Below are positions 1 to 47,162 of a stretch of DNA of 64,000 nucleotides, one piece after another. The position numbers were made by a program, and so were the translations under genes. The notes below the pieces were generated by a model. The model was given only the letters and a program-made list of their open reading frames with translations. It was not told the DNA's origin and ran no database searches. Each line of letters opens with the position of its first letter. The stretch's first letter is position 1. The stretch spans positions 64,001 through 128,000 of the forward strand of contig OZ241993.1 of NCBI GenBank assembly GCA_965204575.1, in the 5' to 3' direction. Origin of the DNA: an uncultured candidatus Porisulfidus sp. Lineage in GTDB: Bacteria; Pseudomonadota; Gammaproteobacteria; Poriferisulfidales; Poriferisulfidaceae.

Positions 1-759
1 CTTGGCGCGAACTTGCTTGTTGCAACCGGTGTAGCGGCGGTGCAGGGTGCCGGTCGCGCCCCACTTCGACCGGTAGACCGGCCAGCCGGTCGCCTGGCCC
101 AGCGCCGGGCTTAGGGGCTCGGTCCGAAGCGTGCGCCCCGCCATGCTGAAATGGCAGTGCGCGCAAGCGAAATTCAATTGGCCGCGGCGCGTGAAATAGA
201 ACTCGCGCCCCTTCTTGTACGCCTCCAGCGCACCGGGGTCGTCCTCGGGCACCACCACATCGATGATCTGGCCCCGCGATTCGTACGCCATGTAGGCCAG
301 AAGATCCACGATCGGGCCTTTCTTGTACTCCAGCGGTTCTTCGCCATGGGCCTCGCGGCACTGGTTGATCGCAAGTGCCAAGGTGACAACCTGCCCTTGC
401 TCCCTGTCCCACCGCGGGTAGTGGTGCTGAACGCCCGGCTCTCCGAAGCAGTCCGCATAAGACTTCCCGTTGGCGAACGGGGTGTTCCACATTTCTTCGC
501 CATTGGCGACCGCGATTTCATAGGGTGGAAATTCTTCGATCAACAGCCAGTTCTCATACCAGGCCTTGTTCAAGGCGTATGTACCATTGGCGAAGTCTTC
601 CCAAGCGATCTCGGGAAACTTTTCCGTGAAGAATTTCTGGATCGCCTCCAGATCCTTCTTTGGACTCACATCGGCATCCAGGCTTTCCGCGCCCGCATTG
701 GCCACCAGCCCCACCAGCAGCAGGGAAGCCGACCAAGCCAGGACTTTTCTAGAGATCAT
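1..759 (-). CDS. soxA: SoxA sulfur-oxidation c-type cytochrome (runs off left edge; absent from ORF track)
   Basis: Manual translation from ATG at 759, overlapping the soxZ stop: MISRKVLAWS...signal peptide...FTRRGQLNFACAHCH...GWPVYRSKWG...LHRRYTGCNKQVRAK. One CxxCH plus SoxA C-terminal motifs; follows soxYZ. Confidence 0.93.
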   Translation of the reverse strand, partial: MISRKVLAWSASLLLVGLVANAGAESLDADVSPKKDLEAIQKFFTEKFPEIAWEDFANGTYALNKAWYENWLLIEEFPPYEIAVANGEEMWNTPFANGKSYADCFGEPGVQHHYPRWDREQGQVVTLALAINQCREAHGEEPLEYKKGPIVDLLAYMAYESRGQIIDVVVPEDDPGALEAYKKGREFYFTRRGQLNFACAHCHFSMAGRTLRTEPLSPALGQATGWPVYRSKWGATGTLHRRYTGCNKQVRAK

Positions 760-1064
760 TTGACCTCGGCCTCCAGAGAATCAGAATTGCCCTGATTGTC
801 CGTCCAGCTCAGGATCACGATGTCGCCCTTGGCGCCCTTGTATTTGAATGACAGATACGGATTCTTGGAGACACCGGTCCCCCAGTTCGCGGTAAAGACG
901 ACCTTGTCGCCAACCGTCGCAGTGACTTCCTGGATAAAGTGCGCCGGAATGATGTTTCCGTCACCGTCCTTGCGCAGGCCCGTCTCCATCGGATGGGTAA
1001 TCAGGGCCTTTACGGTCACGACACCGCCTTTTTCCTTAGCCCGTACACGCATGCTTCCTGCCAT
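756..1064 (-). CDS. soxZ: SoxZ thiosulfate oxidation carrier subunit
   Basis: HPMETGLRKD...IPAHFI...VSKNPYLSF motifs; adjacent to soxY. Confidence 0.96.
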   Translation of the reverse strand: MAGSMRVRAKEKGGVVTVKALITHPMETGLRKDGDGNIIPAHFIQEVTATVGDKVVFTANWGTGVSKNPYLSFKYKGAKGDIVILSWTDNQGNSDSLEAEVK

Positions 1065-1080
1065 GATTTTGCCTCCTCGT

Positions 1081-1518
1081 TCAGCCGCCGCAGCCGCCGA
1101 TGGTTACTTTGACTTCCCGCACGCCGGAATACGACTTGCCGCCCGCTTCGACCAGTGCCACGACGTTGGATGTCCTGAGCATCTTCACCCGGGTCGAGAC
1201 ATACGGAACCGAATCGGCGGTCAGATCGTACGTGGACGTCAACGGCAGAGGATTCTGCTCGACCACGATGCTGATCCGGGTCACACCTTCCAGCGTCGTG
1301 GAAACCGAAATCGGGACCACTGCGCCGTTTTCCGCAATGTCGGGGGCGGTAATGGTGATCGCGTCGCTGGGTGCCGGCTCGCTGCTTGCCAACATGTCGA
1401 TCAGTGCGCCGGACTCTTGGGCCTCGAACGCCTCTTTGGGCCAAGCGGCCTGCACGGAACCCGCCACGCATAGCGTCCCCAGGCCTAGACCCGCTGTCAG
1501 AAAAGTTCTTCGATCCAT
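1081..1518 (-). CDS. soxY: SoxY sulfur carrier (Tat signal)
   Basis: C-terminal VKVTIGGCGG arm. Start placed at ATG 1518 (MDRRTFL twin-arginine signal); the longer ORF-track start lies inside the inserted element. Confidence 0.95.
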   Translation of the reverse strand: MDRRTFLTAGLGLGTLCVAGSVQAAWPKEAFEAQESGALIDMLASSEPAPSDAITITAPDIAENGAVVPISVSTTLEGVTRISIVVEQNPLPLTSTYDLTADSVPYVSTRVKMLRTSNVVALVEAGGKSYSGVREVKVTIGGCGG

Positions 1519-1529
1519 GGTTTTGTTCT

Positions 1530-1558
1530 GGGAATTACTAACATAACTTGACAGACTC
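1530..1558 (+). repeat. Left terminal inverted repeat GGGAATTACTAACATAACTTGACAGACTC
   Basis: Reverse complement of 2813-2841 with one mismatch. Confidence 0.95.
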
Positions 1559-2788
1559 GCGTCTGCCATATTCTGCAATTATTTGACGCTTCCCAGGCCG
1601 ACTGTGGCGGGAGACCCCGCCGGTGTCGCCACCTCCACGTCCAGCCGCCCCATTCCCGAAGGCCAAAATGTTCAATGCGGCGTTCACATCCGCATCGTCC
1701 GCATGCCCGCAAGCGGTGCACTTGAAGTCTGTTCCATTTCTGTTTCTCTCATCGACGTGCCCGCATGAATGGCAGGTCTGGCTGGTGTACGCCGGAGGCA
1801 CATGGCGCACCTCCATCTTGTAGTCCAGGCAGAGCTCCAGCGTGCCCCATGCGCTGGCCAGTATCTTCCGGTTCAGAGCCGCCTTCGCCTTCACGTTCCT
1901 GCCGGGTTTCTGTTTCGTGCCCCTGGCCGATTTCGTCATGCCCTTGATGTTCAGCTTCTCGACATAGGCCACGTCGTATTCTGACGCAATTCCCTTGCTG
2001 ACGTGGTGCGCCCAGTTCAACCGGGCGAAGCGTTCCGCATGGAATGCCCTCTGCAATCGAACTTTGGTGATCTTCCTGCGATTGCTTCCCTTCGCCTGCC
2101 GCGCCATCTTGCGCTGGTAGCGCCTGCGCTTGGCCTCTTTCCACGCTAAGTCAGGCCCCGGGTGCTTCGTGCCATCCGACAATACCGCCCACCCGTCCGC
2201 GTTCACGTTGCGGTCGATGCCCACTTCCTTGATCGTGTGAGGAAGACTGGCTTCCGTCTGGACTTCATAGGTCAGGTAGGCGTACCAGTTGCCACATTCG
2301 TACTTGATCTGGCCGGACTTGAACTCGCCGTCCAAGTAAGGGTTGTTGCCGACTATCTTCATCCAGCCGACCTTCTGCACATACAGGCTTTCTCCTGCTA
2401 CCTTGGAACAATAGCGGTCTAATGGAAACGAAGGCTCGGCCGTCCACTTGCCGTGGAACTGGGGAAGTTTCCGGTTCAATTTTCCTCCTGTCTTGCAGTC
2501 CTTGAAATATTCACGGTAAGCCGTCTCGATGGGTTGCAGGGAACTCTTCACCACATACGCCGAATAATCCTGCAACCACTTGTAACTGTGCCTTCTCAAA
2601 ACGGTGAATACCTTGCCCAACGAGAAATAAGTCCATTCCGGCTTGATTCCGAATTCGTATTCGTCCCTGAGCTTCCCGACCATGTGGTTCCAGACGAAGC
2701 GGCAGGCCCCGGCGGTGCCGTGCAGTTGCCGGTTCTTTCTTGCAGAACCCGGATGCAGGCGGTAGCGGACGGTGCGATGGACTTTCAT
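1538..2788 (-). CDS. tnpB: TnpB RNA-guided endonuclease (IS200/IS605-type), RuvC catalytic residues intact
   Basis: N-terminal YRLHP...GACRFVWN; RuvC GIDRN, VEKLNIKGM, DADVNAALNI; zinc ribbon CHSC/CTAC. Stop codon lies inside the left TIR. Confidence 0.95.
   Translation of the reverse strand: MKVHRTVRYRLHPGSARKNRQLHGTAGACRFVWNHMVGKLRDEYEFGIKPEWTYFSLGKVFTVLRRHSYKWLQDYSAYVVKSSLQPIETAYREYFKDCKTGGKLNRKLPQFHGKWTAEPSFPLDRYCSKVAGESLYVQKVGWMKIVGNNPYLDGEFKSGQIKYECGNWYAYLTYEVQTEASLPHTIKEVGIDRNVNADGWAVLSDGTKHPGPDLAWKEAKRRRYQRKMARQAKGSNRRKITKVRLQRAFHAERFARLNWAHHVSKGIASEYDVAYVEKLNIKGMTKSARGTKQKPGRNVKAKAALNRKILASAWGTLELCLDYKMEVRHVPPAYTSQTCHSCGHVDERNRNGTDFKCTACGHADDADVNAALNILAFGNGAAGRGGGDTGGVSRHSRPGKRQIIAEYGRRESVKLC
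1552..1700 (-). ncRNA. Putative omega-RNA overlapping the tnpB 3' end, scaffold ending at GCGTCAA (TCAA 1586-1583), with internal guide
   Basis: GGACGTGGAGG...GAAGCGTCAA architecture shared with the second tnpB; internal hairpin GGCGGG-GTCT-CCCGCC. Boundaries approximate. Confidence 0.6.
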
Positions 2789-2794
2789 GGGAAG

Positions 2795-2823
2795 ATTCTG
2801 ATGCCGGGTTTAGAGTCTGTCAA
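2795..2823 (-). promoter_or_regulatory. Putative sigma70 promoter for tnpB with -35 inside the TIR (likely leaderless mRNA)
   Basis: TTGACA (2823-2818), 17-nt spacer, CAGAAT (2800-2795), then 6 nt to the ATG; no Shine-Dalgarno. Confidence 0.6.
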
Positions 2824-2841
2824 GTTATGTTAGTAATCCCC
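2813..2841 (-). repeat. Right terminal inverted repeat (minus strand GGGGATTACTAACATAACTTGACAGACTC)
   Basis: Inverted copy of 1530-1558. Confidence 0.95.
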
Positions 2842-2856
2842 TTTATTCTCTCCCGG

Positions 2857-3204
2857 CTACAGAGTGTGTATGAATTCGACAATCTTGTCGATTTCCTCTT
2901 CCGTCAGAATCTGGTGCTTGCCGAACGGCGGCATCATGGCGTGCGGCCGGAACTGGGTCTGATCCCAGACATTCTGCCGCAAGACTTCCTTGTCGGGGAA
3001 ACGTGCCTGCATCGCGACCAGCGGCACGGAAATGGTGCCCGGAACTTCGCCCCCCGCGATCGAATGGCAGGAGAGGCAGTTCCCCTTCTTACTGTCGAAG
3101 GCGATTTGCCGCCCTTCTTCGATCATTGCGTCGTCCGCCTGCGCCAATGGCGCGAAGCCTACGCATGCGACGACGAGCAGCAGCGACAAGCTAGAGAATT
3201 TCAC
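2857..3204 (-). CDS. soxX: SoxX c-type cytochrome
   Basis: KGNCLSCH heme motif, MMPPFG; signal peptide from GTG 3204 (start inferred). Confidence 0.92.
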   Translation of the reverse strand: MKFSSLSLLLVVACVGFAPLAQADDAMIEEGRQIAFDSKKGNCLSCHSIAGGEVPGTISVPLVAMQARFPDKEVLRQNVWDQTQFRPHAMMPPFGKHQILTEEEIDKIVEFIHTL

Positions 3205-3338
3205 GTTTAACGCCTTGAAAATTCGCAACGGCGAAACATTATACCTAAAGAAAATAGGGGTTTTTTGACAGAAATTTGACGGGAAACACCTTAAAATATT
3301 GGAGAAACTCATCGCGGCTGGTAGACTGTTTTGCGGAT

Positions 3339-3413
3339 GGGCGATTAGCTCAGGGGGAGAGCGCTGCCTTCACACGGCAGAGGTCGCTGGTTCAATCCCA
3401 GCATCGCCCACCA
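3339..3413 (+). tRNA. tRNA-Val (CAC)
   Basis: Cloverleaf GGGCGAT...ATCGCCC-A-CCA; anticodon arm CTGCC-TTCACAC-GGCAG; T-loop GGTTCAATCC. Confidence 0.96.
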
Positions 3414-3481
3414 CTCCCGACCGCACCTCGCTCCGGCGACTTAAAACATGTCGCCGCCTGCTAGAATTTCTAATGTGTTCC

Positions 3482-3557
3482 GCCCCCATCGGTTAAGCGG
3501 ATAAACCACGGGATTCCTAATCCCGGACTGGTGGTTCGAATCCACCTGGGGGCGCCA
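3482..3557 (+). tRNA. tRNA-Arg (CCT)
   Basis: GCCCCCA...TGGGGGC-G-CCA; anticodon arm CGGGA-TTCCTAA-TCCCG; GGTTCGAATCC. Confidence 0.95.
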
Positions 3558-3562
3558 CCCCC

Positions 3563-5215
3563 TCAGATCGGACAGACGATCTCGCCGAGGTGCTTGCTCA
3601 GGCGCATGTTCTCGTTATAGTCGATCGGCACCACGATCAGGGACGGCCCTTCTTCCTCGAACGCCGCCTCCAGCGTCGCCTCGAGATCCCGGCTGGCCGT
3701 GACCACGTGCCCGTACCAGCCGAACGCCCGGGCCAGGTTCAGCCAATCCGGATTCGTGAACTCCAGTTCCGTGTGACGGTCGAATTGCTGCTCCTGCTTC
3801 CAGGAAATCAACCCATAGCCGCCATCCTCCCACACCATCACGACAATGGGCACGCCCAAGCGGCGGGCGGTCTCCATCTCCTGCACGTTCATCAGGAACC
3901 CGCCGTCGCCACAGATCGCCAGGATTCTGCGGGTCGGATGCACGAGACTCGCCGAAATTGCTCCGGGCAACGCAAACCCCATCGAGCAAAATCCGTTAGG
4001 AATCAAGCAGGTATTGGGTTCATGGCAGTGATAGTGGCGGGCGATCCACATCTTGTGCGCGCCAACGTCGGACAGCAGGATATCCGACGGGCCCATGACC
4101 TTGCGCACGTCCCAGAGCACTTTCTGGGGGCGTAATTTTCCTTCCGCATCGTCATCCTTGTAGGTGGCGAATTCGCCCAGCATCTCTTCCCGGACCCTTT
4201 TCTCCCGGGACAAGTCCCAATCCATCTGCCCGTTCGTCCGCGCCCGCTCGTTGAGCATGGCCAGAGTCTGGGCTAGATCGCCGACCAGTTCCACCTCGGG
4301 ATGGTAGTGGAAGTCGATCTCGGCTGGTTGGAAATCTGCATGGATGATGGTTTTGAGACCCTCCGGATTCCACAGATGCGGGTGATACTCGACCATGTCG
4401 TATCCGAGCGCCAGCACCACATCCGCCGCATCGATCGCGCAAGCCACCAGGTCCTTGGCCCCCAGGCCAATCGTGAACAGGCAGTAGTCCTCGTCCATGT
4501 CCACACAACCCTTCGCCATGAACGTGCTGATCACGCCGATGTTGTTCTGCTCGCAGAACATGCGCAACTGCTGGCTGGCCCGGGTGCGGATGCAGCCATT
4601 TCCGGCAAGAATCACCGGACGCCGCGCCCGGCACAGCATTTCGAAGGCCCGGTCGACTTGCTCCTCGGCTGGAATCGGTCGACGGAAGCGGACCGGGGAG
4701 ATCGGCTCCACGTCAGTGTCGTGTTTCGCAATGTCCTCCGGCAACTCAAGGTGGACGGCGCCAGGCTTTTCACTGCGCGCGATGCGAATCGCCTTGCGCA
4801 CGATTTCCGGAAGACTATTCGGCTGGATAATGCTGGTCGACCATTTCGTCACCGCCTGGAACATGCTCACGGCATCCATGATCTGGTGGGATTCCTTGTG
4901 CTGGCGGGCGGTGGAGCCCTGGCCAGTCAATACCAGCATCGGCGACCGGTCCATGTTGGCGTTCGCCACGCCCGTCACCAGGTTGGTGGCGCCCGGACCC
5001 AAGGTGCCCAGGCAGCCTGCCGGCTGCCCGGTCAATCGGCCGTACACATCGGCCATGAATGCCGCCCCCTGTTCGTGCCGGGTCAGGATGAATTCAATCT
5101 TGTCCGACTTCGACAGGGACATGACGAAGTCCGCATTCTCTTCTCCGGGAACGCCGAATACGTACTCGATGCCCTCGGCCTCAAGGCAACGGACAAACAG
5201 GTCAGACGCTTTCAT
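3563..5215 (-). CDS. Acetolactate synthase large subunit-like TPP enzyme
   Basis: MKASDLFV start; FGVPGEEN, RHEQGAAFMA, GPGATN, GDGGFLMN TPP motif. Confidence 0.9.
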   Translation of the reverse strand: MKASDLFVRCLEAEGIEYVFGVPGEENADFVMSLSKSDKIEFILTRHEQGAAFMADVYGRLTGQPAGCLGTLGPGATNLVTGVANANMDRSPMLVLTGQGSTARQHKESHQIMDAVSMFQAVTKWSTSIIQPNSLPEIVRKAIRIARSEKPGAVHLELPEDIAKHDTDVEPISPVRFRRPIPAEEQVDRAFEMLCRARRPVILAGNGCIRTRASQQLRMFCEQNNIGVISTFMAKGCVDMDEDYCLFTIGLGAKDLVACAIDAADVVLALGYDMVEYHPHLWNPEGLKTIIHADFQPAEIDFHYHPEVELVGDLAQTLAMLNERARTNGQMDWDLSREKRVREEMLGEFATYKDDDAEGKLRPQKVLWDVRKVMGPSDILLSDVGAHKMWIARHYHCHEPNTCLIPNGFCSMGFALPGAISASLVHPTRRILAICGDGGFLMNVQEMETARRLGVPIVVMVWEDGGYGLISWKQEQQFDRHTELEFTNPDWLNLARAFGWYGHVVTASRDLEATLEAAFEEEGPSLIVVPIDYNENMRLSKHLGEIVCPI

Positions 5216-6817: not shown

Positions 6818-7489
6818 ATGCCTCTTTCCGACCAGATTGCCCCGTCCATCCTGTCCGCGAATTTCGCACGTCTCGGTGCGGAAGTGGATGCGGTTGTCGA
6901 AGCCGGGGCTGACATGATTCACTTTGACGTGATGGACTACCATTACGTTCCCAACCTCACCATCGGGCCGCTGGTCTGCGAGGCCCTGCGCAAGCACGGC
7001 GTCACCGTACCCATTGATGTTCACTTGATGGTGACCCCGGTGGACGGGCTGATCCATGATTTCGCCAAGGCGGGAGCCAGTTCCATTACGTTCCACCCGG
7101 AAGCGACCCAGCATGTTGACCGCAGCCTGCAGTTGGCCCGCGATCTCGGTTGCAAGAACGGATTGGTGCTCAACCCGGCCACGCCTTTGAGCGCCTTGGA
7201 TCATGTTCTGGACAAAATCGACATGGTCCTGCTGATGTCCGTCAATCCCGGGTTCGGGGGGCAGTCCTTTATCCCGCAAACTCTGGAAAAGATTCGCCAG
7301 GTTCGCGCCCGGCTCGACACCTGCGACCAGCCGGTACGCCTGGAGGTCGACGGCGGCATCAAGGTGGACAATATCGCCAGCGTGAAAGAGGCCGGAGCAG
7401 ATACGTTCGTCTGTGGCTCTGCTGTCTTCGGCAGCGACGATTACACAGCTACGATGGCTGCGCTGCGCTCAGAACTGGACCGAATCTGA
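6818..7489 (+). CDS. rpe: Ribulose-phosphate 3-epimerase
   Basis: [35 protein letters not shown]. Confidence 0.96.
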
Positions 7490-7605
7490 CCGGTCGATTA
7501 GATCTGAAGGGAAAATAATCGCTGGGTATATGCGGGCTATGCTTGCCAACCGATTGCGGGGAAGCAGGTGCGACGATCGTGTGCTGATCTGAAGGTAAAA
7601 CGACC

Positions 7606-10600
7606 ATGAGGAAACTCCCGAAACGCACGTTCCCCAAAGCGGCATTGGTTGCGGCAGAAAGTTTATTGTCCAAGCGCGATGGCCCGGAGGACCACGTCCG
7701 GCAAAACATCGGCCGGCTTCTCGACGCGCTCGGAATTGATAACGAGTTGACCTATCGGACCGCCGAAGGACCAGCCGACATTTATCTGCCTCGTCGCCGG
7801 ATCTTCATTGAAGCGAAATCAATTGGCCTAGCCGACGATCCCAACAAACCCCAAGCAAGAGACAATGACGAATCGCCCCGCCAGCAAATGGAACGTTATC
7901 TCTTGAGCGAATTACGGGAAGAGTGCGATCTCCCTCTCGAAAGCGCCCACGACAGGCCGTGGACCGGAATTGTCACCGACGGACATGTCTGGCATGTCTG
8001 GCTCTATGACGCGGCATCCGGCAGGGTCATACAACATCTTCTTGACGGGTTCCGGCCGTCCAGCGCAAAAGAATTGCTCGGCACAATATGGCCCTTGGTC
8101 GAGAGCAATCCGATCGGCAAGCCATGGATCTTCGCCGACCCCCGGCCGCTGTTCGAGCCCCTGCGCGAAGAGCTTCAGAAAATTTTCGAAGGCCTGCGCG
8201 AACAACACCGGGCGGAAACTGCCACGAAACAACAACTCTGGCTAGACATGCTCCGGACCTCCAACATGGAGCCGGAGAATGATGCGGCCACACAACGACT
8301 GTTCGTGACACATTCTTTTCTCGTTGCGCTGGCTCGCGGCGTCATCCACACGTTGGCACGGCCGCGCGAGAAGCCCGACCCGCGCAAGATACTGGCGGAC
8401 GGTTTCGTCGCATGGATTACGGCCACGGTCGCAGGCCGTCAGTGGGCACAGGGGTTTTTGGAGAAGATTCATTCGTATGAATGGCGGCGGCGGCGCGGTG
8501 ATGTACTCCGCCCGCTTTACGAACGTTTTGTAGATGTCCATGACAGACAAGACTTCGGGGAATACTACACGCCAGACTGGCTGGCAGAAATCATAGTCCA
8601 CGAAGTATTGGATGACGACTGGTGTGAACACGCCGTTGAAGCCGCGCTTGCCGCCGACCGGAACCCCGAATTCCTCTATGGCCGAGGGGTGCTTGATCCC
8701 ACTTGTGGTTCGGGCACGTTCCTCTACCATGCGGCCCGGCGAATACTAGGGTCTGACGCACTTGCGAGACAGCAACTGGATTCGGTCGGACGCGCACGGG
8801 TCGTTGCCGGGCTTGTCAACGGGGTTGACGTACATCCCGTGGCCGCAGAGATTGCCCGCGCCACACTCCTGCGCGCCTTGCCCTCAGAGCCCCCAGGGGG
8901 AAGCGCCGCAATCCGGATTTACGAAGGCGATGCTTTGCTTGTCCGATCCCATGACGAAAGTTCATTGTTCCGTCCAACGAACGGCGAATTCCGATTCGAA
9001 ACTCCGGCCGGGCGGGCGGTGCTGCTTCCCCGCTCCTTCGTCAATCTGGCAGGATTTGCGGATCTGCTTCGACGCCTTATCGACGCTGCGATGAAAGACC
9101 AGCCTGTCCCCACTGATGTTGGCACCAGCATCCCGAAAGAAGACCGGGACGCACTGGTGAAGGCCCGCGACAGTCTCGTGGAAATCATCCAGAACGAAGG
9201 CAATTCGGTTTGGACTTGGTTCATCACCAACATTACTGGCCCTTTCAGACTGATGGAGCAGAAAATCGACCGGATCGTTGCCAACCCCCCGTGGGTTTCG
9301 ATGGCTGGAATTCAGGCCATATCAAGAAAGCGAGCGCTGGAAGAGTTTTCGAAAGACCCGTGCGACCTTTGGACCGGCGGCAGAAATGCGCCGCATTTCG
9401 ATATCGCCCAACTGTTTGTCAGGCGCTGTCGGGAGATTTATCTTGCGGACCCGGACAACGATCCAGCTGGCTGGTTGGTCAAGCGCGCCGCACTGAAGTC
9501 CGAAAACTGGAGCCGATTTCGGCTGTGGCATGAAAAAATTCTTGCCCAGTCGATCGACCTGCTAGAAATCCAGCCTTTTGGCGGTGGGGATGCCCGCCGC
9601 TGTTGCATTCTGTTCGACCACCGACCTGCGTCGACAGCTTTGACGCGAGTGCGGGGACGAGAACTTCGGGCGCGAATCCTAGGGCGGGAGCGTCCGGAAC
9701 AGGATATGCCACGCGCAGCAGCGCTGGAGCTGATGGAATTCGCTCCTGTAGAGGCTCCGTTCCCCAAACAGGCTTCCGCCTATTGCAACGAAAAGGGCAA
9801 GCCCTGGTTCCGGCAAGGAGCCACGGTGACCCCGATGGTCCTCGCTGTAGCCGCCATCGTCAGGCGCGAAAAAACAGGGCCGGAACACTTGCTGACCGTA
9901 ACAACCGCCAAATCAAGCAAAGAGCCATGGTCCCGGATTGATTCCCAAGTGGGCGAGTTCCCCGAGAACTGGGTGCGTCATCTGCTGACTTCGAACGACT
10001 TTTATCCTTTCGCGACTGCACACCATCTGCAACAGGCAATTATTCCCGTAAATCAAAAAGGCCAATTACTTCCGGACCCCGGTGCTGTGTCCGATTCATG
10101 GCAAGAATTCGACGAAATATACAGGGAGCACAAAGGGCGCGGACAGAATACGCCTGTCACCCTTATTGGCCGGATAGACTACGGCAAAGGACTTTCCTCT
10201 CAACTCTCGTTGACTGGCACAAAAAAGACACTGGTTCTGCACCCCACGTCAGGCGACATCATGCGTGCCGCGCGGGTTGTCCCTGGTTCAGTCATCGTCG
10301 GTCACACACTTCACTGGTATCCCGCCGCAACCGAAGCGGAGGCCGCCTATCTGATCGGGGTACTGAATACCCCCGCGCTCAATCCTGCGTTTGTCGACGC
10401 GCGAACCGGTGGAAGGCATTTTGTCAACCATCCATGGCGCGCAATTCCCATCCCCCGGTATGATTCCAGTCAGAAGCTTCACCGAGAGATTGCGCGGCTG
10501 ACAAGGCGCGCGGAAAAGATTGTTGACCGCTGGTATTCAGAGAATCCAAGTCCGAGCGGGCAAGTGAAGATATCCAAACGAATCCGCAGTCTGCTGGAAG

Positions 10601-10671
10601 ACCGCGGAATTTTTGATGTGCTCAATGCCTCTGTGTACCAGTTACTGCCACATCATGTGCGTAGGAAATAG
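7606..10671 (+). CDS. Fused restriction endonuclease/N6-adenine methyltransferase (Type IIG/IIL-like)
   Basis: N-terminal PD-(D/E)xK-like ADIYL...FIEAK; GEYYTPDWLA; motif I VLDPTCGSGTFL; motif IV ANPPW; C-terminal TRD-like region. Confidence 0.85.
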   Translation: MRKLPKRTFPKAALVAAESLLSKRDGPEDHVRQNIGRLLDALGIDNELTYRTAEGPADIYLPRRRIFIEAKSIGLADDPNKPQARDNDESPRQQMERYLLSELREECDLPLESAHDRPWTGIVTDGHVWHVWLYDAASGRVIQHLLDGFRPSSAKELLGTIWPLVESNPIGKPWIFADPRPLFEPLREELQKIFEGLREQHRAETATKQQLWLDMLRTSNMEPENDAATQRLFVTHSFLVALARGVIHTLARPREKPDPRKILADGFVAWITATVAGRQWAQGFLEKIHSYEWRRRRGDVLRPLYERFVDVHDRQDFGEYYTPDWLAEIIVHEVLDDDWCEHAVEAALAADRNPEFLYGRGVLDPTCGSGTFLYHAARRILGSDALARQQLDSVGRARVVAGLVNGVDVHPVAAEIARATLLRALPSEPPGGSAAIRIYEGDALLVRSHDESSLFRPTNGEFRFETPAGRAVLLPRSFVNLAGFADLLRRLIDAAMKDQPVPTDVGTSIPKEDRDALVKARDSLVEIIQNEGNSVWTWFITNITGPFRLMEQKIDRIVANPPWVSMAGIQAISRKRALEEFSKDPCDLWTGGRNAPHFDIAQLFVRRCREIYLADPDNDPAGWLVKRAALKSENWSRFRLWHEKILAQSIDLLEIQPFGGGDARRCCILFDHRPASTALTRVRGRELRARILGRERPEQDMPRAAALELMEFAPVEAPFPKQASAYCNEKGKPWFRQGATVTPMVLAVAAIVRREKTGPEHLLTVTTAKSSKEPWSRIDSQVGEFPENWVRHLLTSNDFYPFATAHHLQQAIIPVNQKGQLLPDPGAVSDSWQEFDEIYREHKGRGQNTPVTLIGRIDYGKGLSSQLSLTGTKKTLVLHPTSGDIMRAARVVPGSVIVGHTLHWYPAATEAEAAYLIGVLNTPALNPAFVDARTGGRHFVNHPWRAIPIPRYDSSQKLHREIARLTRRAEKIVDRWYSENPSPSGQVKISKRIRSLLEDRGIFDVLNASVYQLLPHHVRRK

Positions 10672-41923: not shown

Positions 41924-43330
41924 ATGCACCGAGCCTCCCGCTACCGTCTGTATCCGAACCAGACGCATGAGCGGCAGTTCACTCGGCTGTGCGGGGCCGG
42001 CCGATTCGTCTACAACGAATTGCTGGCCAGCCAAATCCAAGAGTACAAGCGTTTCGAGGCCGGCGAGAGAGAAAGGCCGGGCACCTCCGAGTTTGACTTC
42101 GGAAGGCGGTATGCACGCCTGAAAGCACAGGAAGGTCACGAGTGGCTGCGGGAGCTGTCAGCCGTGGTCGTGCGCGGCACGGGGGCTTTCCCGCTGGGGT
42201 CGGCGTTCGCGCATTTCTCCCGTCGGATCCGGGAGAGCAAGTGCGGCAAGCAGGCCGGATTCCCCCGCTTCAAGGTCAAGGGCAAGAGCCGGGAGTCGTT
42301 TACGATCCCGGAGGACGTGAAGATCCGGAGCAAGCGGCTTTGGGTACCGAAGGTGGGCTGGATCCGGATGAACCGCAAGGCGCAATCGCGCACGCAGGGA
42401 GCCGACCCTTGGGACAGCGGCGAAGCCAAGACCGCGGTGGTGTACCGGGAGCTGGACAAATGGTACGTGTCGGTGCTGTGGGAGGTGCCAGACCCGGACT
42501 GGCGTTGGCACGGCGGGGTCTGCGGGATCGACCGCAACTCGGAGAACATCGCAGGGGCCTGGAGCGGCGGGCGGAGGCTGATCGAGATTCCGTATGAGCG
42601 AATCGGGAAGTACGAGGCGCGGGCCCGACACTACCAGTGGCGGGCGAGCCACCGGGAGCGGACCGAACTGAAGGATTCTGACGGAGAACCGGTGCGCACG
42701 AAGTCGGGCAAGAAGATCAAGGTGGCCTCGAACCGACGCCAGCGCTTGCAGTTGCGTGCGGCGAAGGCGAAGCGCAAGGCGGCGGAGATCCGCAAGGACT
42801 TCAGCCACCAGGCCTCGGCCGACCTGGCTCGGAACTTCCAGCACCTCGTGCTGGAGGACCTGGACGTGCAGGCGATGCGGCGCTCGGTGCGGGGGACGAA
42901 GGAAAAGCCAGGGCGGCGCGTGAAGGCGAAGACGGCGCTGAACCGGAAGATGGTGCAGTTCTCTTGCATGGGAATGGTGGACCGCTTTCTCCAGTACAAG
43001 GCGGCAGATCTCATCCGGGTGCCGGCGCGGAACACCAGCCAGGCCTGCGCGGAGTGCGGGCACACCGAACAAGGCAACCGGAAGGAGCAGGCGCACTTCA
43101 AGTGCCTGGCCTGCGGGCACACGGACAATGCGGACATCAATGCCGCACGAAACATCCTGGACCTGGGATTGAACAGGCTCCTGGCCGGAGGCGCTCCGGT
43201 GACGGGACGGGGAGGGGACAACGAAGCGGGGGCATTCTTCTATGAGTGCCTAGTGGACACCGCCGATGATCCGTCAACGATGCAGTGGAACTACCGGGGC
43301 TCGCCCCCCGACTTCCACACAGAATCGTGA
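41924..43330 (+). CDS. tnpB: TnpB RNA-guided endonuclease, RuvC catalytic residues intact
   Basis: YRLYPN...GAGRFVYN; GIDRN, LEDLDVQAM, NADINAARNI; CAEC/CLAC zinc ribbon; stop inside right-end repeat. Confidence 0.95.
   Translation: MHRASRYRLYPNQTHERQFTRLCGAGRFVYNELLASQIQEYKRFEAGERERPGTSEFDFGRRYARLKAQEGHEWLRELSAVVVRGTGAFPLGSAFAHFSRRIRESKCGKQAGFPRFKVKGKSRESFTIPEDVKIRSKRLWVPKVGWIRMNRKAQSRTQGADPWDSGEAKTAVVYRELDKWYVSVLWEVPDPDWRWHGGVCGIDRNSENIAGAWSGGRRLIEIPYERIGKYEARARHYQWRASHRERTELKDSDGEPVRTKSGKKIKVASNRRQRLQLRAAKAKRKAAEIRKDFSHQASADLARNFQHLVLEDLDVQAMRRSVRGTKEKPGRRVKAKTALNRKMVQFSCMGMVDRFLQYKAADLIRVPARNTSQACAECGHTEQGNRKEQAHFKCLACGHTDNADINAARNILDLGLNRLLAGGAPVTGRGGDNEAGAFFYECLVDTADDPSTMQWNYRGSPPDFHTES
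43150..43308 (+). ncRNA. Putative omega-RNA, scaffold ending at CCGTCAA (TCAA 43274-43277), with internal guide
   Basis: GGACGGGGAGG (43205-43215)...GATCCGTCAA mirrors the first tnpB; hairpins CCGGAG-GCG-CTCCGG and GGCATTC...GAGTGCC. Boundaries approximate. Confidence 0.6.
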
Positions 43331-47110: not shown

Positions 47111-47162
47111 CACATATAATTCAAGTTTGACCTGAAGGTCGATCAATTTTACGCCTGTCTTC

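Follow-up and report, generated by a model that had tools for sequence, protein, structure and literature searches.

A tnpB-only element with terminal inverted repeats and 8-bp target-site duplications in a Candidatus Porisulfidus sox operon: a candidate for mobilization in trans

A 64-kb stretch of contig OZ241993.1 from an uncultured Candidatus Porisulfidus sp. (the window; coordinates given without a locus name are positions within it) carries in its sox operon a 1,312-bp element, at positions 1530-2841, with tnpB as its sole gene. The element is mobile DNA that entered by a staggered 8-bp cut of its target. Such a cut made on inverted repeats points to a DDE-type (RNase-H-fold) enzyme acting in trans, and we consider it probable (roughly 0.6) that this is a non-autonomous element with terminal inverted repeats (TIRs), moved in trans by a DDE-type transposase, with tnpB and its RNA serving to maintain it by means of a guide taken from the flanking DNA.

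The two TIRs of the window element are 29 nt long and lie at 1530-1558 (the right end, at the 3′ end of tnpB) and 2813-2841 (the left end, 5′ of tnpB); their arms are complementary at 28/29 positions (97%). The TIR pattern was found in exactly two places in the window with up to three mismatches allowed, and never in 100 shuffles. Directly abutting the TIRs are two 8-mers identical at 7/8 positions, TTTGTTCT at 1522-1529 beside the right end and TTTATTCT at 2842-2849 beside the left end; on the strand of tnpB these read AGAACAAA and AGAATAAA, respectively. The only long open reading frame (ORF) between the TIRs recognized by Pfam is tnpB (1538-2788, minus strand, 416 aa), and no gene in the element can encode a transposase. 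A preliminary description of the window had reported these repeats and a 1312-bp cassette containing only tnpB within the sox operon, and all of its factual statements on the window element hold, including the 8-bp direct repeat; a lone 7/8 match could be chance, and the reality of this one as a duplication follows from the relatives of the element.

The window TnpB has 1,065 relatives in the database, and several paralogues with 69-82% identity lie on the same 1.8-Mb contig. A genome scan gave 34 loci (numbered L002 and so on below), 33 of which hold tnpB relatives of 39-97% identity in 13 assemblies, the remaining locus being a Tannerella relative with 30% identity and without repeats. The 33 relatives are from sponge-associated metagenome-assembled genomes, of which 10 kb on each side of the elements was seen, amounting with the window to ∼710 kb; the genome of the window itself is absent from the fetched loci. 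The hosts are Gammaproteobacteria named Candidatus Porisulfidus, Chromatiales or Oxydemutatoraceae and also two Caldilineaceae, with ∼40% identity to the window TnpB. Across the 33 related loci, TIRs of 24-29 nt bracket tnpB alone wherever both ends are intact, and their tips start with GGG, followed by A/G, A/C and finally TTAT or TTAC.

The duplication has a length of 8 bp in each of the 22 elements whose two ends could both be read, the two copies matching at 8/8 positions in 15 elements, 7/8 in four (the window element among them), 6/8 in two and 5/8 in one. All 22 8-mers are mutually different and AT-rich, in surrounding DNA of 56% G+C. This set leaves out L021 (the same insertion as L009), L002, L003, L006, L008 and L014 (left ends decayed) and elements truncated at the end of a contig. 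A BLAST comparison of the flanks of the loci with one another identified empty homologous sites for L004, L012, L023 (two empty relatives), L028 and L030, each with a single copy of the 8-mer and at most one substitution. The window supplies a further case at 47111-47150, upstream of a bioD-like gene, which corresponds to the L016 insertion site without its element and contains the 8-mer once (TCAATTTT; L016 has ACAATTTT). Because the 8-mers differ with each insertion and the empty sites hold one copy, they are true target-site duplications produced by an 8-bp staggered cut and not a fixed target motif of the IS605 type. The preliminary description had proposed to look for TIRs and new 8-bp duplications at other copies and for a single 8-mer at an uninterrupted soxX-soxY site, and the family bears it out: the TIRs are kept, no IS605-type hairpin occurs at the left end, the duplications are perfect in 15/22 and all different, and empty sites at other loci carry the 8-mer once. 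The family moved after related lineages split, as related genomes differ in presence or absence of the element at several sites. Two independent insertions of the family were also observed in two genomes, within one and the same intergenic region and at a distance of 40 bp from each other (L012 9952-9959 versus L032 9944-9951 / L027 285-292), the second of them being split over two contig ends of one assembly.

These ends bear directly on whether the element could be an ordinary member of the IS200/IS605 or IS607 type, moved by a Y1 or serine TnpA in trans, with the inverted repeat and the 8-mers incidental. Its TnpB is nearest to that of IS200/IS605 (156 bits with the NCBIfam model IS200_TnpB and 82 bits with IS607_TnpB; each score is under the cut-off of its model, that of IS607_TnpB being 350), and the right end has a subterminal hairpin. 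Variable 8-mers that are single in empty sites nevertheless refute such a reading, the two ends are inverted copies of each other, and no left-end hairpin was seen, with z-scores of −0.3 to +1.8 in 10/10 folds. The window element also contains no gene for a serine recombinase TnpA, and elements of the IS200/IS605 and IS607 families are without TIRs and make no duplications (PMC13565253, PMC6188088). We therefore give this explanation next to no chance, in agreement with the earlier judgment that the element is not IS200/IS605-like, which the missing left-end hairpin (0/10 folds) and the varying duplications sustain.

The window TnpB comprises the Pfam domains HTH_OrfB_IS605, OrfB_IS605 and Cas12f1-like_TNB, scores 206 bits against the NCBIfam model guided_TnpB (cut-off 100) and is homologous to the ISDra2 TnpB structures (E 5e-26). 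Its RuvC residues D192, E277 and D367 and its CxxC...CxxC motif are intact. Across the family the tnpB ORFs are full length in 22/22 (401-446 aa), with the catalytic triad and the four cysteines of both CxxC pairs invariant in all of them, and the median ratio of nonsynonymous to synonymous substitution rates (dN/dS) is 0.16 (range 0.06-0.28; 174 usable of 231 pairs). With its triad and zinc finger intact and under purifying selection, TnpB is apparently active, and the preliminary description's wording, an apparently active RNA-guided nuclease, thus gains family-wide backing. The protein has no close annotated relative on plasmids: tblastn returned 3,935 plasmid records, all with <60% identity and the best with 35%, and the whole element had no plasmid match by blastn. 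The window encodes a second, different tnpB at 41924-43327 (plus strand, 468 aa), 32% identical to the TnpB in the sox operon, with HTH_OrfB_IS605 and zinc-ribbon domains and a small hairpin upstream of its ATG; no flanking inverted repeat was found around it. A gene of the same type is present at L014:19236-20645.

The right end is predicted to have the layout of a TnpB guide RNA, with the scaffold ending at the element boundary. The predicted omega RNA- or reRNA-like scaffold (1530-1694, minus strand) overlaps the 3′ end of tnpB and ends at the TIR tip, its 5′ limit being uncertain between 1665 and 1694. Its structure, derived from a single-sequence fold and an alignment fold, comprises a hairpin, a two-hairpin domain and a long terminal hairpin with the TIR as 3′ arm; a pseudoknot is proposed in which the small hairpin, through its GGGAAU loop, pairs with AUUCCC at the repeat tip. 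In the scaffold alignment 94.8% of cells are paired versus 31-54% with the partners slid, a control that is generous to the structure, which is partly derived from the same sequences. Compensatory change is found in nine scaffold pairs, and the covariation score was reached by 0/500 shuffles. For the pseudoknot, the support consists of one compensatory event, A-U to C-G in three Caldilineaceae. The terminal hairpin (the last 50 nt) was recovered in 14/14 folds despite sequence differences between subfamilies. The DNA after the RuvC-III motif is near-invariant among members whose proteins are 70-80% identical, and identity at third codon positions is 0.77 in the tail of tnpB versus 0.61 in the gene body. 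An Rfam scan of window positions 1-5000 at E up to 1 returned two tRNAs and chance hits, none over the element. Since the scaffold ends at the element tip, the guide would be the duplicated 8-mer plus flank; the predicted guide portion, placed from the scaffold end and the TnpB literature, occupies 1510-1529 on the minus strand, that is the duplication and the first bases before and into soxY. At position 4 of the tip, the window element, L025, L028, L029 and L031, which represent three subfamilies, have a G on the left and an A on the right, and the right-end A of this conserved difference pairs in the proposed pseudoknot.

The preliminary description had called the element non-autonomous and DDE-mobilized. 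Its TIRs, 8-bp duplication, lack of a transposase and sole cargo of tnpB agree with this; what the ∼710 kb did not yield is a transposase with these ends. Several observations weigh against mobilization in trans as proposed here, beginning with the searches for the partner. A profile of 24 TIR arms and a regular expression for the tip matched, over the ∼710 kb, only the ends of tnpB elements. Pfam was applied to 311 ORFs, namely five longer window ORFs and 306 out of 320 non-overlapping ones of 220-560 aa (the 14 left out were mostly syntenic duplicates), and recognized no transposase with tnpB-element ends. Nor was a longer, fused relative of TnpB found at E 1e-20.

Further points of this kind come from the elements themselves. 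In the inner part of the TIR (positions 10-24), identity is 94% when the two ends of an element are compared and 60% when elements are compared with each other; for the tip (positions 1-9) it is 95% and 87%. Several TIR subfamilies coexist in one assembly. A single enzyme acting in trans would accordingly be restricted to recognizing the 9-12-nt tip; the alternative would be a set of matched enzymes. At −1, immediately outside the left copy of the duplication, the base is a purine in 26/26 insertions, the −2 base is never C, and the first duplicated base is A or C in 23/26, whereas the mirror positions at the right side are without bias (15/26 and 14/26). The target signature is thus asymmetric relative to the orientation of tnpB, which a symmetric transpososome does not predict. 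Finally, no fixed target-adjacent motif (TAM) of 4-5 nt was found next to the guide-matching DNA, also when each TIR subfamily was inspected by eye, so that a homing role for TnpB is tentative. A pentamer 20 nt from the right end was considered as a TAM for self-cleavage of both ends and rejected, the motif not being kept at the left end.

Several of these observations count in favor of an autonomous family, in which the RNase-H-fold nuclease TnpB, alone or together with its RNA, would recognize the repeats and perform or direct transposition. All elements examined, spanning 39-100% protein identity and two phyla, have tnpB as the sole gene inside the repeats, intact and under selection; no partner occurs within the 710 kb; the inner TIR co-varies with its element, as expected of a recognizer encoded in cis; the invariant purine at −1 sits where a TAM would; and the 3′ part of the RNA is by construction complementary to the left-end repeat. 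Against this, we know of no report of strand-transfer activity in a TnpB. Precise ends together with an exact duplication of 8 bp are what a transposase classically produces, and non-autonomous elements are normally unlinked to their partner, here with sampled flanks of 10 kb on each side. Known TnpBs are hydrolytic nucleases and dispensable for transposition of IS608, ISDra2 and IS607, according to passages in PMC3627910. On balance autonomy appears unlikely. A narrower version, in which there is no separate transposase and TnpB with its RNA recognizes both ends and the target and acts as, or recruits, the machinery using the TIRs and making the duplications, seems to us slightly less likely again; if it were true, the orientation-dependent purine at −1 would be a TAM-like target read-out of TnpB.

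If a DDE-type transposase acts in trans, the IS1595 family, which was the preliminary guess, is one candidate, as 8-bp AT-rich duplications and GG(G) tips such as those of the tnpB elements are typical of it. Duplications of 8 bp are, however, also made by ISL3, IS256, IS6, ISH6 and the ISMich2 group. Pfam matched one IS1595-family transposase among the 311 ORFs, in L009; the other mobile-gene matches were one IS630-type transposase (L030), one XerC-like recombinase and two tnpB of another type. The L009 insertion sequence (IS; 6930-7683, 754 bp) has 22-nt perfect repeats and an 8-bp duplication, TATTGAAA; it lies 2.3 kb from the tnpB element and is absent at the homologous L021 site, which suggests that IS1595-family enzymes work in one or more of the host genomes. 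Tip-anchored comparison of its repeats with the 24 tnpB TIR arms gave a mean of 9.3/22 matches, a value reached by 10% of GG-keeping shuffles (p ∼0.10; one IS1595 member compared), and the repeats are thus not significantly alike. Among the best 120 IS1595 homologues there was no signal of co-occurrence with contigs carrying tnpB paralogues, in a test of little power. No IS1595-family transposase is present inside the window element, where tnpB is the sole gene. The guess is neither supported nor excluded by these data, and as a specific form of mobilization in trans we regard it as doubtful. A 95-aa ORF with a CxxC motif and a weak helix-turn-helix match (L009 7853-8140) lies just downstream of the IS1595-family IS.

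In L030, a 2,521-bp element was considered as a tnpB element with its own transposase and rejected: its left repeat is interrupted by a nested IS630-like IS (8779-9800), which has its own repeats, a TA duplication and a DDE_3 transposase gene divided by a frameshift into two ORFs. An intact copy of this IS is present at L030:4332-5393. All-against-all clustering of 1,009 flank ORFs showed only tnpB and its antisense frames to recur in many loci, and blastn of two left-end repeats against plasmids (E up to 10) gave 12 and 3 chance-level hits within unrelated genes.

Returning to mobilization in trans by a DDE-type enzyme as the preferred reading, a transposase encoded elsewhere in the genome would bind the GGG-tipped repeats and move the element, and TnpB with its RNA would act as the element's own maintenance module. 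With a guide read from the duplicated 8-mer and flank, where the scaffold ends at the element tip, the complex could cut a copy of the site without the element, and repair from the element-bearing copy would restore it. Homing or retention of this kind has been reported for IS605-family TnpB, which is the model for the role proposed here. Precedent for the transposition part comes from TnpBs associated with DDE transposases and inverted terminal repeats, where solo TnpBs with the same ends are taken as mobilized in trans (passages in PMC10691335). One pair of loci offers a possible trace of the predicted repair. L009 and L021 share a 3.5-kb block (L009 7692-11252) that is 99.4% identical (21 differences) with flanks of 80-88% identity, and that holds a D12-class methyltransferase gene, an ORF of unknown function and the tnpB element. 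On the right the block extends no more than 38 nt past the tnpB element, and its left edge is at the IS1595 target site. This single case would fit break-induced co-conversion at a guide-matched site.

In the window, the insertion separates the genes of a sox operon running on the minus strand: a soxX-like gene for a mono-haem cytochrome c (2857-3204; ORF and Pfam) upstream of the element, and soxY (1081-1518, ATG at 1516-1518), soxZ (756-1064; ORF and Pfam) and soxA (1-759, running off the window) downstream of it. The tnpB gene is co-oriented with the operon. A GGGAG at 2850-2854 (minus strand), from reading the sequence the likely Shine-Dalgarno site of soxY, is now parted by 1.3 kb from the soxY ATG, which lies 11 nt beyond the element end and 19 nt beyond the tnpB stop and has the repeat tip in front of it. 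Transcription reading through the element, with translation starting anew after tnpB, may keep soxY expressed. The stop is a TAG (1538-1540) within the right TIR, followed by an in-frame TAA, and most family members have their tnpB stop within the tip of the repeat, at a distance of 5 nt from its outer end. At the other end, a promoter-like site of tnpB (2795-2823, minus strand) has its −35 hexamer TTGACA within the left TIR and, after a 17-nt spacer, a −10 hexamer CAGAAT; because the latter ends 6 nt ahead of the ATG, the tnpB mRNA probably has little or no leader. By eye, −10-like hexamers occur at the matching position in relatives. No sox genes occur in the fetched loci. Two tRNA genes (3339-3410 and 3482-3554, plus strand) lie directly upstream of the promoter region of the sox operon.

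The position of the window element before soxY has counterparts in the family: a co-oriented ATG opening at least 80 codons lies within 16 nt past the right end in 10/26 elements, the window element among them, compared with 7.0% at random positions in the same DNA (binomial p 5e-6). This raises the possibility that the copies are immobile relics or have been domesticated, being kept for the host, for instance to drive or couple expression of the downstream gene. The placement of the tnpB stop at the repeat tip in most members is in keeping with it, as are the 69-82% identity of paralogues within a genome, which indicates no recent burst, and the one mismatch each in the TIR and the duplication of the window copy. 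The start-codon bias could equally arise from target choice in AT-rich spacers or survival of harmless insertions. Against this explanation, presence and absence of elements differ between related genomes at several sites, and the nuclease triad is intact in 22/22, unlike in known domesticated TnpB-like repressors (PMC10705468). We consider this explanation very improbable.

Restriction-modification genes are present within 10 kb of elements in L005, L006, L009, L010, L011, L019 and L032, including EcoRV, BglII, XamI and BsuBI/PstI-type endonucleases, Eco57I-type, D12, MT-A70 and N6_N4 methylases, and Mrr; the count is not controlled for the general density of such genes in these genomes. The window also has a 1,021-aa ORF at 7606-10668 (plus strand) with no Pfam match at E 1e-8 and, by eye, an NPPW-type methyltransferase motif.

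TnpB is the ancestor of Cas12, and its known role, homing after scarless excision, depends on a transposase that fixes the TAM. The family described here would be a clade of apparently active TnpBs that has long resided in a type of transposon with variable 8-bp duplications and no fixed TAM, and that spans bacteria of two phyla sharing sponge hosts. It makes testable of what use an RNA-guided nuclease is to a cut-and-paste-type transposon, and which enzyme moves tnpB-only elements. It may further provide a compact natural unit of TnpB and guide RNA, which runs from a promoter in one repeat through an apparently leaderless gene to a scaffold whose end is marked by the tip of the other repeat. 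On the host side, the separation of soxY from its ribosome-binding site in a sulfur oxidizer bears on how insertions are tolerated.

Among known systems, the IS1341 group of IS200/IS605 resembles this family in having tnpB as sole ORF with the same domains and an intact triad, and a guide-RNA scaffold that overlaps the 3′ end of the gene and stops at the element end. The family differs from that group in its 24-29-nt TIRs, its 8-bp duplications and the lack of a left-end hairpin. IS1341-group elements are described in passages of PMC3627910, PMC3119063 and PMC13565253 as being without TIRs or duplications and having hairpins at both ends, and tnpB-only elements are stated to lack TIRs and duplications by Bao and Jurka (PMC3627910) and in a 2026 review (PMC13565253). 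IS1595-family ISs share the 8-bp AT-rich duplication and a tip starting with GG (as seen in the L009 member), but the window element has no IS1595 transposase and its repeats are not significantly alike. Miniature inverted-repeat transposable elements and other non-autonomous TIR elements likewise have TIRs, a duplication of fixed length, no transposase and insertion polymorphism; the window element differs from them in being 1.3 kb long, with a protein gene under selection and a structured RNA.

ISL2 and IS1031 elements duplicate 2-3 bp of their targets, compared with 8 bp here. These two families and IS630, which duplicates TA, are the DDE-linked families named in the review PMC13565253. TnpB branches linked to DDE transposases (DDE-1 to DDE-6) were reported by Altae-Tran et al. 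(2023; PMC10691335), so that prokaryotic TnpB inside inverted-repeat DDE transposons has been in print since 2023, a precedent missed by the preliminary description. According to passages of that paper, these branches resemble the window family in that tnpB lies within inverted terminal repeats and its 3′ end is near one transposon end. Some of their members have a DDE transposase in cis, which was seen in none of the family described here, and the main text of the paper makes no mention of target sites.

Fanzor1 is the system whose lifestyle would have its prokaryotic counterpart in this family. In Fanzor1, too, an RNA-guided nuclease of the TnpB type is the sole gene of a non-autonomous element with TIRs and target-site duplications, the transposase family is not known and the TIR is part of the guide-RNA scaffold, as given in passages of PMC10711439. 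Fanzor1 is distinguished by its occurrence in eukaryotes and their viruses and by belonging to another protein clade; its duplication, moreover, enters the scaffold and is read as part of the TAM, whereas that of the window family is variable. Our full-text literature search returned no account of a prokaryotic family that carries tnpB alone between TIRs and duplicates 8 bp, and the supplements of PMC10691335 may contain one. Relative to these systems, what is new here is the family-wide proof of the duplications from empty sites, the absence of a cis transposase, a predicted scaffold that stops at the tip of the repeat, the asymmetry of the target signature, the bias toward start codons and the spread across two phyla.

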